This document shows positions 25,720 to 32,023 of a DNA stretch of 64,000 bases, piece after piece; position 1 is the stretch's first letter; each line of letters begins with the position of its first letter. The position numbers were made by a program, and so were the translations under genes. The DNA lies in the NCBI GenBank assembly GCA_963728405.1, contig CAVSJV010000005.1:32001-96000 (forward strand), in the 5' to 3' direction. The notes below the pieces were generated by a model. That model saw only the letters and a list, made by a program, of their open reading frames with translations, was not told the origin of the DNA and searched no databases. This DNA is from Methanomassiliicoccaceae archaeon. GTDB lineage: Archaea > Thermoplasmatota > Thermoplasmata > Methanomassiliicoccales > Methanomassiliicoccaceae.

Positions 25720-26123
25720 CCGGACCTAGTATCGCCCTTTTTTGCTGTACCAATGCCCGTGCGGCCCTGTCACCGGCAGGCGGGGATGAGGAGCGATCGC
25801 CCGACATCTCCATCATCGAGCTACCCTGTTCCGGTCGCATTGACGAGGTAACGATCATCAAAGCATTGCGCAACGGGGCCTGGGTGGTCATGGTCGTAGG
25901 CTGCCTGGAAGGCAACTGCAAGTACGGCGCGGGCAACTACCAGGCCTGGAGGCGGGTGGAGGAAGCGCGCTCCCTGCTCCAGCAGCTGGGCGTGGACCCC
26001 CAGCGGGTCCAGATGTTCAACGTGGCCTCGAACCAGCACTCCCGCCTTCTGAATGCCATGAATGAGATGAGGGAGCGGGCGCTCAAGCTGGGACCGATCA
26101 GGATACTGGAGGGTGACCGATGA
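25716..26123 (+). CDS. mvhD: MvhD-like [2Fe-2S] subunit
   Basis: FCC, LPCSGRID, GCLEGNCKYGAGN. Confidence 0.9.
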   Translation: MTGPSIALFCCTNARAALSPAGGDEERSPDISIIELPCSGRIDEVTIIKALRNGAWVVMVVGCLEGNCKYGAGNYQAWRRVEEARSLLQQLGVDPQRVQMFNVASNQHSRLLNAMNEMRERALKLGPIRILEGDR

Positions 26124-26824
26124 TAATCGCGGAGCAGAAGGACCTGGGGCAGATCGTCAAGATGCTGGAGGGGCAGAAGAGGGTCCTGGTCGCAGGATGC
26201 CGTTCCTGCGTGGCGATTTGCCTGGCTGGTGGAGAGCGGGAAGTATCGACCCTGGCGGAGGCCCTCCGTCTGCATGCAACCATCGAAGGACGGGACCTGG
26301 ACGTGGCCGAAGTGACCCTGGAACGTCAGTGCGAGAAGGAATGGGTCAGGGAGATGGAACCCCTGATGCGCGATCGCGATATCGTCCTGTCCCTGGCCTG
26401 TGGGGTAGGGGCCCAGGTGGTTCAAGAGATGTATCCTACAGTGAGGGTAGTGCCCGGGCTCAACACCTCCAACATGGGAGCGCCCGAGGAACAGGGCATC
26501 TATCTGGAGAAATGCGGAGGATGCGGAGATTGCGTGCTTCACCTTACCGGGGGCATCTGCCCGGTGGCCCGCTGCTCCAAGTCGTTGATGAACGGCCCTT
26601 GTGGGGGCGCTCAGAACGGCAAATGCGAGGTGAGCCCCGAAACCCCCTGTGGTTGGGAGCAGATATATCGCAGCCTGGAAAGGCTGGGCCGGTTGGACCT
26701 GTTGGAGGAGAACATCCCACCCAAGAACTGGCTGCCCTCCCGCTCCGGGGGAGTGCGCCGGATCGTCCGCCGCTCGGCGGTCCAACGGCCCGAGGAGAAG
26801 AACTCCAGGGAGGGGAACAGATGA
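26120..26824 (+). CDS. metV: Methylene-THF reductase small subunit MetV
   Basis: GCRSCVAICLAGG, RQCE, ACGVG, CGGCGDC...CP..RCSKSLMNGPCGG. Confidence 0.88.
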   Translation: MIIAEQKDLGQIVKMLEGQKRVLVAGCRSCVAICLAGGEREVSTLAEALRLHATIEGRDLDVAEVTLERQCEKEWVREMEPLMRDRDIVLSLACGVGAQVVQEMYPTVRVVPGLNTSNMGAPEEQGIYLEKCGGCGDCVLHLTGGICPVARCSKSLMNGPCGGAQNGKCEVSPETPCGWEQIYRSLERLGRLDLLEENIPPKNWLPSRSGGVRRIVRRSAVQRPEEKNSREGNR

Positions 26825-27738
26825 GATCCCAAAGCAACCTGGAGAAGGTCCTCGAGGGTGGGCACTTCGCGGTGACCGCGGAGATAGGCCCCCCGAAGTC
26901 AGCCTGTGCCGAAGGGGTGAGGAAGAAGGTCCGCGCCCTGAAGGGGTGTGCCGATGCCCTCAACCTGACCGACAATCAGACCGCCATCGTCCGCCTATCG
27001 AGCTTAGCGTCCGGGGTGGCCTGCCTGCAGGAGGGCGCCGAGCCGGTCATGCAGATGACCTGCCGCGACCGCAACCGTATCGCCATGCAGTCCGATCTTC
27101 TCGGTGCGGCCGCCCTGGGGATCAAGAACGTGCTGTGCATCTCGGGGGACCACCAGGTCTTCGGCAATCAGAGGGAGGCCAAGAACGTCTACGATCTTGA
27201 CCCCATCCAGCAGCTCATGGTATTCCGCCAGATGCGCGACGAGGGCAAGGTGTGGGGTGGAGATGTCCTGGAGGAGCGTCCCATGGTGTATCTCGGGGCT
27301 GCGGCCAACCCCTTTGCTGATCCGTTCGAGTTCCGGGTGACCCGGTTGGCCAAGAAGGTCAAGGCCGGAGCGGACTTCATCCAGACCCAGGCAGTGTTCG
27401 ATCTGGACCGCTTCGAGCGATTCATGACCCTGGTGCGAGAGAGAGGGCTGGACGAGAAGGTCCACATACTCGCCGGGGTAGTGCCCCTGCGCTCGGCCAA
27501 TGCCGCGAGGTACATGAAGACCAAGGTCTCCGGAATGAGCGTACCAGATGAACTGGTGGAGCGCATGAAGGGGGCCCAGGACCCCAAGAAGGAGGGGATC
27601 CGGATCTGCGTGGAGACGATCGACCGGCTGAGATCCATCAAGGGCGTCCATGGCGTACATATCATGGCCATTGGGTGGGAGGAGGTCGTCCCCTCGATCG
27701 TGGAACAGAGCAGCCTCCTGCCCAGGTCGGAGATATGA
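26821..27738 (+). CDS. metF: 5,10-methylene-THF reductase large subunit
   Basis: TAEIGPPK, NLTDNQ, TCRDRNR, ISGDH, KKVKAGADFIQTQ; ATG at 26821. Confidence 0.94.
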   Translation: MRSQSNLEKVLEGGHFAVTAEIGPPKSACAEGVRKKVRALKGCADALNLTDNQTAIVRLSSLASGVACLQEGAEPVMQMTCRDRNRIAMQSDLLGAAALGIKNVLCISGDHQVFGNQREAKNVYDLDPIQQLMVFRQMRDEGKVWGGDVLEERPMVYLGAAANPFADPFEFRVTRLAKKVKAGADFIQTQAVFDLDRFERFMTLVRERGLDEKVHILAGVVPLRSANAARYMKTKVSGMSVPDELVERMKGAQDPKKEGIRICVETIDRLRSIKGVHGVHIMAIGWEEVVPSIVEQSSLLPRSEI

Positions 27739-27919: not shown

Positions 27920-28680
27920 ATGGATGAGAAGCGTTGCTGGTTCTGCGGTCGCGGTCGGCGAGAGCTGATCGAAGATCTGCCCCCGGGCTTTTGGGACGAG
28001 CAGCAGGACCTGTTCTTGGAGATCGAGGTCATCGGCAGAGTCAGTGGGGTCGACAAGGTGAGGCCGGGTGATCCCGCCCACAGCCGTCATTTCAAGCGCC
28101 ATGATGGGCCGCAGGATGAGGTACATTCGTTCGATGACCGGCGGTTCGCGGTGGTCGCCAGGAAATTCATGAAGGTAAGCGTCTGCCGGGTGTGCCGAAG
28201 CGTGGAGACCGGGCTGTCCTCCCTTTCCGACAACAGCAAGGGCACGATCCCATATCGTTCGATCTACACTCCCGGTTCAGAAGAGCTGGCAGTAGCCCGT
28301 AACTGGGAAAAGTTGCGGTCGGAGGAGAAGCTTAAGGAGGCCGAGTATCCAGACGAAGCCTACCGTGCTCTTCTGGCAATCAGAGCATTGAGCGATGGCG
28401 GACCGATATCTCTATGGGACCTCTCCCGAGAGATGAACGTGTTCAATCACCGGGCGCTGGAGCGACCCATCGGCCACCTCATAGCGCAATGTCCCGAGAT
28501 CGGGGAAATGGACCGTAAGGCCCTGATCTTGCGCCCTACCAGCCCCACAGCGGGCGACCGTCCTGATCGATGAGCTGATCGCCAAGTATGAGGCCTTCTA
28601 CGGACAACATGAAGTTCGCCCCGCTCCCCCCGCGCCACCGTCCCAACACAACGAGGTCTTGGCCCGGATCAAGAAGTTGA
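27920..28680 (+). CDS. Hypothetical protein with CxxC...CxxC zinc motif (C-terminus probably frameshifted)
   Basis: MDEKRCWFCG...CRVCR; the ORF stops at 28573 but a shifted frame continues to ~28680. Confidence 0.5.
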
Positions 28681-28815
28681 ACAATCCGACGGACAATATG
28701 CAATATTATTCAAAATGGTGACCGGGAGCTCCTTAAGGAGCTTCAGTTAGGCCCCCTGTTAGGGCCCCCTTAGGAGGGGGCCGTCGGGTTTATAAAGTTC
28801 ATTTCCGGTAATTAT

Positions 28816-28905
28816 TTACCGGTGCCTGCCACCGGAGCTGATCTTGATGTAGGTCCAGGTCGCGGCAAGGAAGACAACAGATCCTGCGAAGTATACAAAT
28901 TCCAT
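28816..28905 (-). CDS. Small membrane peptide, copy 1 (MEFVYFAGSVVFLAATWTYIKISSGGRHR)
   Basis: SD GGGGGTGA, ATG, hydrophobic helix plus basic tail; paralog at 29329-29412. Confidence 0.75.
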   Translation of the reverse strand: MEFVYFAGSVVFLAATWTYIKISSGGRHR

Positions 28906-29085
28906 CTTTTTCACCCCCTTCAACTTTCACCCCAGATGGAGGGATGAAGTTTATTTTGGACCGTTGACTATTTATATTTTTCTTATTAAATTATTCATAA
29001 GATTTTTAATCGATTTATCACATCTATGGCTGTTAAAAACGTCCCTTACTTGGCATTTGTCAGAAAATATGTATCAATTCTTATC
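28822..29085. repeat. Diverged direct repeat, copy 1 (~265 bp)
   Basis: Aligns by eye with 29333-29594 (e.g. cttgatgtaggtccag, ccttcaactttcacccc, tggcatttgtcagaaaatatgtat). Confidence 0.9.
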
Positions 29086-29328
29086 TAGCTTTTCGAATAT
29101 ATTCTAAGGTGATGCAGTGTGGTGCAATGTTCAACGGAAATCAGAGAAATTGCAGACATCGGTCCAGAGCGAACTGCCATCGAGCACCTATCGGTCTTCT
29201 CTATTAATGCCGTATGCATTCCTTTCGAAAAGGGCTTAATTCCTTAGCGAGGTTCGAGAAAAATATCGCGGTTAGGATCCCCTTTTGGGGGATCCGTAGA
29301 GTTTTAATCTCCTGACGTAGGTGCTGTT

Positions 29329-29412
29329 CTAGCGCCTGCCGGAGCTGTACTTGATGTAGGTCCAGCATGCAGCTAGGAATACAATCGATCCACTGAAGTA
29401 TATAAATTCCAC
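29329..29412 (-). CDS. Small membrane peptide, copy 2 (MEFIYFSGSIVFLAACWTYIKYSSGRR)
   Basis: SD GGAGGTGA, GTG start; synonymous and conservative changes relative to copy 1. Confidence 0.75.
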   Translation of the reverse strand: MEFIYFSGSIVFLAACWTYIKYSSGRR

Positions 29413-29594
29413 CCTTTTCACCTCCTTCAACTTTCACCCCCGAAAGGGGGATGAACTTCATTTTGGATTCTCAACCTATTTATCATTATCTAATTAGATT
29501 ATTCATAAAATTATTTAGCAGATTTTGCCCATTTATGTGGTCGAAATACGTCCCTTATTTGGCATTTGTCAGAAAATATGTATTAATTCTTATC
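29333..29594. repeat. Diverged direct repeat, copy 2
   Basis: Aligns with 28822-29085. Confidence 0.9.
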
Positions 29595-29789
29595 ATACTC
29601 GCCGGGGTGGCCTTCCAAAGCAACGTTGGAAGGGGGTTTATTGAAGAAAATCGCTCATTTTCTTCATCAATCTATCCATAACGGGCAGAGGACACGAGGA
29701 TCCAACATGGGCTGTAGGGGGCTTGCCAGAAATATATCGCCTCACAATATATTGTTATGAATGGCCAAAATATGATCAAGGACTATGTT

Positions 29790-29827
29790 AAAAAAAGGTG
29801 AAAGGAAAAGTGAGGTCCGAAGACCTC
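29790..29827 (-). terminator. Hairpin + U-tract terminator
   Basis: GAGGTC-TTCG-GACCTC followed by T-rich runs just after the stop of 29841-31867. Confidence 0.75.
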
Positions 29828-29840
29828 TTTAGGTTCGTTC

Positions 29841-31867
29841 CTACGCCTCGGTCAGGAATTCCGGGAACGCTTCCTCGGGCCATTCGAAGCTTGCGAACAC
29901 GCCGTAGAACAGCATCTGGTCGTTCTCGAACGCGAAGCAGACATCGTTGCTGTGGACGCCCACATAGTTGTTGGTGTACAGCACGGCGCTAAGGCTCAGC
30001 TCCACCGGGTAGTCCAGGATGCAGATGGTCATGGTTTCGTTGTCGTAGGCGGTGGAATCGAACTGCACGACCGCCCTATTGTCGTTACCCATGATGACCG
30101 CGGACTCGGTGTGGTAGATGGCCGTGTCGAGTTCCTGGCTGACGCACTCGTGCATGCATGAATGAGTGACCGTGGTGTGGGCAGTGACGTTGGTCCAGGT
30201 GTCCACAGTGACACGGTCATCATAGTTGTGCACGACCACCATCTGCTCATAGCAGACCTCAGTGGCGAACTCCAGCTGGGAATCCAGACCGGTGTGCTCC
30301 AGGGGATTGACCTCGTCGCAGGCATAGGTGGCCTTGGTCTCCATGGTCAGCACGCAGGGCTTCAGCGGCACATCAAGTGTCAGGTAGACGTAGACTCCCA
30401 TGACCCCAGCGTCGTCATCGTAGTTGCAGATCTGGGCATAGGCCACGTTCCTGAGGTCGCATGAGCCGAGCATGAGAGCTGAGACGTTCTCCAGGGTGAA
30501 GCTCATCGCATACGGGTAGCAGTAGCTCTCCCCGGCCTGCAGCACTGGCATGCAGGAGATGTCCACATCGATGGTGGCGACATCCACCCAGCACTCTCCG
30601 TTCCACATCTGCACGGTGTCGGTGACCATCAGACCTTCGGTCGGGCAGTCCCCGGTGTTGGTGACCTTGATGCTCCCCCAAACATTGTAGTTCCCGTCAT
30701 CCCTGATGAGGAACTGGGCAACCTCGACCGGCAGCATCTCAGTGATGCTCTCGGCAGAGCTAGCGTCCACATTGTTGACGGTCCAGCCATCGGGCAGGGC
30801 CATGCCAAGCTCGATCGCCTCGGTCCAGGATACATTGGCCGTCTTCTCGACGCACAGGGTGGTCTCGATCGGGCCGCTGTAGATGGTCACTGGGACATGG
30901 TAGGATATCGCATCGGTGTCCTCGGGAACCAGTATGGCCTGGTTGCATAGCACATATGTCATGTTCCTGGGTGCGTCGACGTTGGTCACTTTGAGGTTGA
31001 CCATGAACTCATAGTGGGTGCATGCGTCGTCCTCAAGGTTCCACGGTCCAACATCGCTCAGAGCCTCGACCTCGAACCCACAGGGTATGCTGAAGTCGTC
31101 CCTGAGGCAGGCCTTTTCATCAACGATGATGATCGTCGGGCAGTCCGGCAGGCAGAACTCTTCGCAGGCCTGTACGCCGAAGCACTCGCCATCATGGTCA
31201 ACGAAGTTCGAGATGATCACGTCGGCCACGTTGCGGTACTGCACGCCCTCGATGGGTTCGAAGACGATCTCGTACGCGTAGGCGTAGCTCTCCCCGGCCG
31301 CTAGCACGGGGTGGCAGGTGGTGTCCACTTGGAAGGTCACGTAATCAACGAACTCTCCCTCGCAGGCCATCGTCTGCACGGTGTCGCAGATGACCAGGTC
31401 CTTGGTATCGAAGCATCCGGTGTTGGTGACGATTATCTCGCCCCTGACGCCGTACACGTCGGTAACGCATGGTCCGGACCGGTCGGCTGATAGCATGTAC
31501 GAGACAACAGCGCTCTCGCCGGGCTCGATCTGGATATCATAGCCGTCGGAATCCTGGGCCTTCAGGACATCATCGTTCTCGTAGACCTCCTTGTACACCG
31601 ACCAGGTGTAGGTATCGGTCTTCTCCCAGAATCCGCTTGCGGTCTTATCAGCGCTGATCGTGGTCAACGCCGGCATTACGGTCTGGTCGTCCCCATTCAC
31701 ATTATCGTCGCCAGTCGTTGGCGTTGTACCCGGTTCGGTGTTAGTATCAGGGTTGGTGTCGCCCTGGTCCGCAGACCCGGTCGATACAGGACCCTGTGCA
31801 GCTATCACCGCTACGGCACCTATTACAACGACTAGCGCTATCGCTAGTGCGATTATTTTTGTTCCAT
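29841..31867 (-). CDS. Secreted acidic Cys-rich protein with two Ig-like repeats
   Basis: Probable start ATG GAA CAA AAA with an A-run slip into KIIALAIALVVVIGAVAVIAA signal/anchor; repeats VTNTG..T.DL.V.DTVQ..PVL.AGESY.Y.Y...RNVA. Confidence 0.75.
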
Positions 31868-32023
31868 TCTTCGTATTGAACCCCCCAAATAGGTTTCTAG
31901 AAATTCTTTGGGTGCCAATATTTTATATATCTTTCTATTAATCATAGATAATAATATCATTCAAGATAACAATGTGCAACAGTAGTGCCAGATGCAATGT
32001 TATACAACAAAGATCACTGTTAT

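Follow-up and report, generated by a model that had tools for sequence, protein, structure and literature searches.

The two genes considered here lie in tandem on the minus strand of a 64,000-nucleotide (nt) stretch of contig CAVSJV010000005.1 from a Methanomassiliicoccaceae archaeon (the whole stretch is hereafter called the window), and each encodes a micropeptide with a single predicted transmembrane (TM) helix. The product of copy 1 is MEFVYFAGSVVFLAATWTYIKISSGGRHR (29 amino acids), with a best 19-residue hydropathy of 1.39 and a net charge of −1 on the N-terminal side and +2 on the C-terminal side, while the single-helix product of copy 2 is (M)EFIYFSGSIVFLAACWTYIKYSSGRR (27 amino acids). 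Both copies are found directly downstream, on the same strand, of a gene for a cysteine-rich protein, referred to below as c13, and together with their flanking signals they form two similar expression cassettes whose features are collected in Table 1. A previous interpretation made from the letters of this DNA (the sequence-only reading) had described a diverged tandem pair of small membrane-peptide open reading frames (ORFs), each with a Shine-Dalgarno (SD) sequence, a TATA-like box and downstream GC-rich hairpins. All of these are present, and it can be added that both ORFs are on the minus strand and that copy 2 starts with GTG.

Table 1. Positions in the window of the two micropeptide cassettes, of c13 and of the associated signals (energies are those of predicted folds; z is relative to shuffled sequence; PWM, position weight matrix; BRE, B recognition element).
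Feature	Coordinates	Strand	Description
Palindromic hairpin	28726..28744	.	Between cassette 1 and the convergent gene c27; read from sequence
3' GC hairpin, copy 1	28749..28783	minus	Core 28762-28782, second GGGGGCC repeat; −17.7 kcal/mol, z −2.2
Stop-codon hairpin, copy 1	28805..28822	minus	CCGGTAA-ATAA-TTACCGG
Micropeptide gene, copy 1	28816..28905	minus	ATG 28903-28905, stop TAA 28816-28818; 29 amino acids, one TM helix, basic tail
SD, copy 1	28911..28918	minus	GGGGGTGA; 5 nt 5' of ATG; aligns with GGAGGTGA of the other 28 cassettes
5' leader hairpin, copy 1	28922..28951	minus	Pairing of C-run and proximal G-run; −13.0 kcal/mol, z −5.0
Promoter, copy 1	28969..29003	minus	TATA box ATATAAATA 28969-28977; A-rich BRE-like stretch and imperfect palindrome upstream
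Upstream block, copy 1	29039..29085	minus	Core TCTGACAAATGCCAA; highly conserved
3' GC hairpin, copy 2	29275..29295	minus	−15.8 kcal/mol, z −4.0; 0/200 shuffles as stable
Micropeptide gene, copy 2	29329..29412	minus	GTG 29410-29412, stop TAG 29329-29331; 27 amino acids
SD, copy 2	29418..29425	minus	GGAGGTGA; 5 nt 5' of GTG
5' leader hairpin, copy 2	29433..29455	minus	−13.9 kcal/mol
Promoter, copy 2	29477..29510	minus	TATA box 29477-29483, palindrome AATCTAATTAGATAA; PWM score 30.5
Upstream block, copy 2	29548..29594	minus	Highly conserved
Terminator-like hairpin and T-run	29812..29827	minus	After c13, between c13 and cassette 2
c13	29841..31874	minus	About 677 (~680) amino acids, cysteine-rich; cassettes directly downstream on the same strand

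The cassettes are a direct but diverged duplication in which approximately 285 nt can be aligned at a mean column identity of 84% (MAFFT, 361 vs. 351 nt), and a DNA search of the whole 2.73-Mb genome returns exactly two copies, the second matching at 80% identity over 254 nt (E = 3e-59). The sequence-only reading had called the differences between the ORFs largely synonymous or conservative, and this holds in one respect only: the replacements are indeed conservative (V/I, A/S, T/C and I/Y), but across the 21-codon core non-synonymous differences (8.3) outnumber synonymous ones (5.7), corresponding to a non-synonymous rate (dN) of 0.19 and a synonymous rate (dS) of 0.60. The best-conserved part of the repeat is a non-coding block 130-180 nt upstream, with 47/50 identical positions as compared with 65/90 in the ORF.

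Relatives of the peptides were collected from the genus of the window genome (labeled g1; the window genome itself is G000) and from more distant genomes. A six-frame protein search of 60 relatives gave credible matches (E of 1.6e-4 or better) in 8 of the 10 other g1 genomes and none outside g1, where four matches at E = 0.25-0.81 fall in long ORFs and were taken as chance. The profile built from all 17 g1 copies recovers the same 17 places among 24 genomes of the family Methanomassiliicoccaceae at E of 2.6e-13 or better; seven further weak matches cover just 9-15 profile positions, and the only full-length weak match outside the genus (G018:C5, E = 0.0068) was rejected as spurious, being located inside a repeat-protein gene and in another frame. 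The 17 copies are distributed over 9 of the 11 g1 genomes, often two or three in tandem. All keep the SD 8-mer GGAGGTGA (present as GGGGGTGA in copy 1 of the window), with an ATG, GTG or TTG start codon 4-9 nt 3' of it.

The family extends to two further genera, g5 and g6, in which 12 more small ORFs with the same SD and promoter were found downstream of the c13 orthologs (for example MFSFTYLKAFAVIAFTYIAINWGF... in g5 and MFALPYSFFYSTGVVFFAAWTTIAASGWLPFF in g6). When a profile built from the 12 copies is run against 121 genomes of the order, it recovers exactly those 12 and no others. Although the g1 and g5/g6 peptide profiles match each other weakly (hhalign probability 40%, E = 2.9e-4), the 29 leaders can all be aligned end to end as palindrome, TATA box, TCCAAA, hairpin, SD and start codon (in full: TTATC-N5-AGATAA, 2 bases, ATAAATA, ~8 nt, TCCAAA, the C-run/G-run hairpin, AGGAGGTGAAA and the start codon), and for this reason we treat the two sets as one family of positional homologs. 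In total there are 29 cassettes in 16 genomes of three Methanomassiliicoccaceae genera (17 in g1 and 12 in g5/g6), encoding peptides of 26-34 amino acids with one TM helix (best 19-residue hydropathy of 1.06-1.86 in 29/29). The C-terminal tails are basic only in g1, those of g5 and g6 being aromatic, Gly/Pro-rich and uncharged. A tree of the 29 cassettes resolves three genus clades, within which the copies of G000 and of G003 cluster within their own genome, while in G004, G005, G008 and g5 the paralog types group across genomes, meaning that old duplicates have been retained there.

Start codon, frame and stop codon are kept in all 29 cassettes. Variation is concentrated at third codon positions, with entropies of 0.52, 0.32 and 1.14 bits at the three positions in g1 (gap-free 21-codon core, 17 copies) and of 0.31, 0.25 and 0.93 in g5, and the median pairwise dN/dS is 0.17 in g1 (109 of 136 pairs with finite dS) and 0.11 in g5 (29 of 36 pairs). 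The g5 estimates are based on 9 g5 copies, as G023a and the two g6 copies were omitted owing to indels. The kept SD, start, frame and stop, the third-position variation and the low dN/dS together mean that these are translated genes under purifying selection, as the sequence-only reading had supposed for a single-helix peptide, and its expectation of frame conservation among relatives is borne out in every homolog. The two ORFs of the window are thus almost certainly real coding genes. Promoter, leader hairpin and SD are better conserved between the genera than the peptide sequence, which is what might be expected if the unit acted mainly as an RNA (a regulatory small RNA or a ribosome-binding decoy) with an incidental or weakly translated ORF. 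That reading seems very improbable in light of the strong three-base periodicity and low dN/dS in two genera and the invariable retention of start, frame and stop; in addition, Rfam at gathering thresholds gives no match in the 64-kb window.

The peptides have little counterpart in existing databases. A HMMER search of 1.84 billion protein representatives, with the 35-residue ORF from an upstream TTG as query, gave 5 matches, three of which are true relatives of 29-33 amino acids in clusters of 1, 1 and 2 members whose sole name is "hypothetical protein"; the other two (834 and 690 amino acids) were discarded as spurious, since their sequences are those of repetitive proteins. There were no matching families in Pfam (E up to 0.01), NCBIfam (E up to 1) or PADLOC (E up to 0.1), no usable match in the ESM Atlas and no relative in viral contigs. 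One match in Bacillota shows 48% identity over 23 residues. A literature search gave no paper on the micropeptide family and, among titles, none on an archaeal type I system, with supplementary files outside the search; the accessible part of the preprint 10.1101/2024.03.29.587405 is silent on the locus. The cassettes encode a new, unannotated family of single-pass archaeal membrane micropeptides on conserved autonomous cassettes. Tandem small genes with retained paralog types also recall the precursors of exported or modified peptides of the bacteriocin kind or of ribosomally synthesized and post-translationally modified peptides. There is only a remote chance that this is what they are, given that the entire peptide is one hydrophobic helix with no leader/core organization, that the conserved neighbors include no gene for a modifying enzyme, protease or exporter, and that a comparison of c13 to Pfam and NCBIfam, under the thresholds applied, gives no enzyme family.

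The anatomy of the cassettes is consistent with independent expression. Along the minus strand, the 5'-to-3' order of parts in both copies of the window is the ~47-nt upstream block, an AT-rich promoter, the C-run/G-run hairpin, the SD, the ORF and a GC hairpin. The end of the TATA box lies 63 nt (copy 1) and 64 nt (copy 2) from the start codon, compared to 58-72 nt across the 29 cassettes. With the transcript start placed about 21 nt 3' of the TATA box (an assumed rather than a measured position), each cassette looks like a separate monocistronic unit of ~200 nt with its own promoter and terminator. The perfect 8-mer GGAGGTGA has only 166 sites in the genome, and this rarity suggests that ribosome recruitment may be unusually strong. 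Such a layout would probably yield a short, stable and strongly translated monocistronic mRNA. The 5' hairpin is predicted in 17/17 g1 cassettes (−4.4 to −13.9 kcal/mol, mean z −2.4) and in 12/12 g5/g6 cassettes.

At the 3' end, stems in the stop region comparable to that of copy 1 occur in most g1 copies. In the g1 alignment of the 3' hairpin, 90.8% of cells are paired vs. 76.4% in shuffles (a value reached by 0/500), compensatory changes are seen in 5 of 7 pairs with a covariation score that is maximal at zero slide, and many of the loops are GCAA. The 3' ends in g5/g6 consist of a GC inverted repeat followed by a T-run in 8 of 12 cassettes, and of T-runs only in the 4 upstream copies of two-copy arrays.

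The upstream block is restricted to part of genus g1: in the window genome it is confined to these two cassettes, and it is partly kept in G003, G002 and G007. It may be either a protein-binding element or a piece of a short divergent RNA, and a terminator-like hairpin on the plus strand (29611-29633) is located just past the block of copy 2. A small plus-strand ORF within the block, MAVKNVPYLAFVRKYVSILI, was ruled out because single-base indels in the G003 copies break its frame.

The palindrome TTATC-N5-(A/T)GATAA that adjoins the cassette TATA boxes is also seen in other AT-rich, promoter-like DNA genome-wide, with 39 matches to TATC-N5-WGATA in G000. A hidden Markov model of the leader also matches the promoter of a family-2 glycosyltransferase-like gene outside the window (E = 2.4e-5; G000:C5:314433-314502, minus strand), and the c13 promoter is likewise preceded by a similar palindrome. 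The element may represent an operator in common use in the genus or a promoter-upstream element; a role as a c13-specific operator was ruled out, as it recurs at many AT-rich sites of the genome.

The protein encoded by c13 comprises an N-terminal hydrophobic TM anchor, a variable acidic linker and a cysteine-rich body, with an internal repeat of ~150 residues (35% identity, E = 3e-16). The anchor has a mean identity of 0.70 over alignment columns 1-25, equal to that of the best ectodomain windows, in a protein whose overall identity is 35-50%. The only Pfam matches are weak ones to DUF11, obtained for 3 of 14 orthologs (best E = 0.0096), and the c13 profile finds no relative among PDB sequences, where its one match is at chance level (E = 0.078). 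Full-length orthologs occur in G000 and 8 of the 10 other g1 genomes, in 6/6 g5 genomes and in the single g6 genome, while c13 is in pieces in two g5 genomes. The rest of the order (201 genomes searched) contains merely partial c13 domain matches inside much longer ORFs. The G022 ortholog (L076, G022:C29:17357-19248) is split into two adjacent pieces in separate open frames of 236 and 443 amino acids, which suggests a frameshift or an assembly error.

At the position of the c13 start (31872-31874, minus strand), 9/9 g1 orthologs have ACG where 5 g5/g6 orthologs have ATG. The ACG codon is preceded by the SD-like run GGGGGGTT, and the first canonical start, a GTG at 31808, would remove the conserved TM anchor. 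It is possible that c13 of g1 uses a conserved non-canonical ACG initiation codon.

The association of the cassettes with c13, like the reach of the family into two further genera, goes beyond what the sequence-only reading had offered. Of the 29 cassettes, 28 are immediately downstream of c13 on the same strand, in 1-3 tandem copies, and in g1 they are situated between the MTHFR gene cluster and c13 in all but one locus. Cassettes occur in each of the 16 genomes that have a full-length c13, and six-frame and profile searches found no credible peptide match in genomes without one. Cassettes are likewise present in 3/3 metagenome contigs that hold a full-length c13 with its downstream flank, although these contigs may nearly duplicate genomes that are part of the count. 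In G001, a g1 genome that is 99% complete, MTHFR and the next conserved gene are ~110 nt apart, and in G012 (genus g3) MTHFR is directly followed by the pterin-binding gene; the syntenic region is closed up in both genomes, from which c13 and the cassettes are thus absent together as a unit. As would be looked for in an accessory subunit, the cassettes lie beside the gene of the proposed partner, c13, and co-occur with it.

From this fixed association and the conserved anchor of c13 we propose, tentatively and at a little short of an even chance, that the autonomously transcribed micropeptides partner c13 in the membrane. The peptide would insert into the cytoplasmic membrane and pack against the N-terminal TM anchor of c13, in g1 with its N-terminus out and its basic tail in, and by analogy with KdpF, AcrZ or CydX in bacterial complexes it could serve as an accessory or anchoring subunit. 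Membrane insertion, topology and physical contact with c13, like the transcript ends and the high expression considered above, are predictions drawn from genome sequences.

A number of observations weigh against such a partnership. One of the three G005 copies (G005:C2) is on another contig among unrelated genes, far from c13. The co-distribution amounts to few independent events, as it could be explained by about one gain together with one or two losses, and the region from MTHFR to PurH is syntenic anyway. Every cassette has its own promoter and c13 its own terminator-like hairpin, so c13 and the cassettes do not appear to form an operon and would not be co-transcribed. The ACG at the c13 start suggests that translation of c13 is low in g1, which would be odd for 1:1 partners considering the very strong signals of the peptides. 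Finally, conservation of the helix is spread all round rather than on a single face (moment 0.087, reached by 54% of shuffles).

Several of these same features, namely the full autonomy of the cassettes (each with promoter, SD and terminator), the orphan G005 copy and the conserved synteny that makes adjacency the default expectation, would fit a stand-alone small membrane protein, for instance a stress-protective or regulatory one, that acts on the membrane or on another complex and has inherited its place beside c13 without functional consequence. A precedent in a methanogen is sP24 of M. mazei, a single-TM peptide that is encoded on a small RNA and protects the cell against salt stress, as described in the portion of the source available to us (10.1101/2025.10.28.685009). 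We nevertheless regard a stand-alone role as somewhat unlikely, since copies remain beside c13 over three genera even where the peptides have diverged almost past profile recognition, the phyletic match is perfect in both directions, loss or absence affects c13 and the cassettes as a single block, and the TM anchor of c13 is unusually conserved.

It is also important to consider the type I toxin cassettes to which the sequence-only reading had compared the layout. The locus has the features used in silico by Fozo et al. 2010 to search for type I toxins, i.e., fewer than 70 amino acids, one TM helix, tandem occurrence within a single intergenic region and similarity that reaches past the ORF (as set out in the part of PMC2887945 consulted here, from which the E. 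coli comparisons below are also taken), with the caveat that tandem duplication with similarity beyond the ORF is a search criterion and not a defining type I feature. The cassettes resemble zor-orz, ldr-rdl and ibs-sib of E. coli in encoding unannotated peptides of ~29 amino acids with one TM helix in tandem in a single intergenic region, and the tandem E. coli loci in having similarity beyond the ORF, a promoter for each copy and, in g1, a polar charged C-terminus. According to a 2025 abstract (PMC12390103), Proteobacteria, Firmicutes and Tenericutes are the only groups in which type I systems are known to date.

In an archaeal module of this type, high doses of the peptide would be toxic to the membrane, and it would be restrained by a small RNA, for example one transcribed from the other face of the palindrome and containing the upstream block. 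Besides the layout and the charged C-terminus of g1, structure at both mRNA ends is consistent with this, as are the upstream block that is better conserved than the ORF and followed by terminator-like signals on the plus strand, and the ability of the copy 1 leader C-run to pair with the SD in an alternative fold of −13.9 kcal/mol (computed without a matching control). A scan with a weight matrix built from the 29 sense promoters (cut-off 9.35; other promoter types were outside the scan) gave weak back-to-back divergent matches in 7/29 cassettes at −93 to −100, but a divergent promoter in this arrangement would direct its RNA away from the gene, with no overlap with the mRNA. For the antisense strand, the same scan gave no promoter-like match inside the ORF or beyond it in 28/29 cassettes, the sole match being in G004a (+145, score 10.3).

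The upstream block, present only in part of g1, is in neither orientation more complementary to the mRNA than expected by chance (z of −1.2 to +0.8). Leader-only folds pair the G-rich SD with a probability of being unpaired below 0.05 in 27/29 cassettes, a result obtained with no shuffled control, while the opening energy of the SD is not above that in shuffled flanks (5.17 vs. 5.63 kcal/mol, Wilcoxon p = 0.16) and the whole mRNA folds only mildly better than shuffles (mean z −1.06). By these predicted folds, the cassettes do not show the translationally inert, structured mRNA with a sequestered SD of a type I toxin. The g5 and g6 peptides lack the charged tail, and the peptides match no toxin family in Pfam, NCBIfam or PADLOC and have no relative in viral contigs. 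What stands of the earlier comparison is the layout, whereas an antisense promoter, a complementary RNA and SD occlusion in excess of that in shuffles were not found and the basic tail is g1-only. These negative results lower the type I reading to the point that we consider a toxin-antitoxin-like module unlikely. More specifically, there is a slim prospect that Archaea have here their first type I toxin-antitoxin-like modules, which would have been domesticated beside a surface-protein gene and in which a membrane-toxic peptide would be held by a short RNA from the opposite face of the palindromic promoter, carrying the upstream block in the lineage of the window. The peptides look more like membrane partners of c13 than like toxins.

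Comparison to characterized systems, here based on excerpts of the cited sources, helps to place the family. The E. coli type I loci (PMC2887945) differ in that the archaeal cassettes are without an antisense or overlapping divergent RNA detectable in sequence and without SD occlusion beyond shuffles. The archaeal peptides are unrelated in sequence to any toxin family and have BRE/TATA promoters, their locus keeps a fixed place next to a surface-protein gene with which it is co-distributed, and the charged tail is missing in two of three genera. KdpF (29 amino acids), AcrZ (49 amino acids) and CydX/CioY (PMC12648545) are similar in size, in having a single TM helix and in the location of their genes beside that of the partner; the proposed packing against a partner TM segment would be a further similarity. 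Their genes are usually single-copy and co-transcribed with that of the partner, in contrast to the 1-3 autonomous cassettes described here, and their partners are polytopic transporters or oxidases (PMC12648545), whereas the partner proposed here is a single-anchor surface protein. The sP24/spRNA24 pair of M. mazei (10.1101/2025.10.28.685009), compared by description only, shares a methanogen host, one TM helix, a small independent transcript and a predicted N-out, C-in topology. It has a documented cis-antisense RNA (asRNA94) and is strain-specific (10.1101/2025.10.28.685009), while the family in the window spans three genera, is tandem, is tied to c13 and has no evident antisense RNA.

The genes neighboring the locus encode formate-tetrahydrofolate ligase, MTHFR, a pterin-binding protein, PurH and a QueG-like protein. 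The conserved hypothetical gene c27 (~27920-28721, plus strand) is convergent with cassette 1, and its reading frame switches near 28545 in the assembly. Its orthologs are uninterrupted in 5/5 cases (261-273 amino acids), the gene is missing from G004, G005 and G008, and the break is due either to a frameshift or to an assembly error. An ORF of 541 amino acids (26113-27738, plus strand), with the MTHFR domain at residues 243-533, overlaps in another frame an ORF of 234 amino acids (26120-26824, plus strand) that corresponds to c12 and also has conserved counterparts in relatives. The longer ORF may be over-called in its first ~240 codons, or there may be two overlapping conserved frames.

Archaeal small proteins are largely unannotated, and Methanomassiliicoccus is a genus of methyl-reducing methanogens. 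A conserved, selected and self-contained cassette makes an easy target for Northern blotting, ribosome profiling (Ribo-seq) and top-down mass spectrometry in cultured Methanomassiliicoccus. The module of promoter, leader hairpin and SD could also be put to use in these organisms as a strong expression element. If the peptides were instead toxic and controlled by RNA, type I systems would be extended to Archaea, and if they partner the anchor of c13, as we tentatively propose, they would indicate an undescribed way to hold or regulate a cell-surface protein in these archaea.

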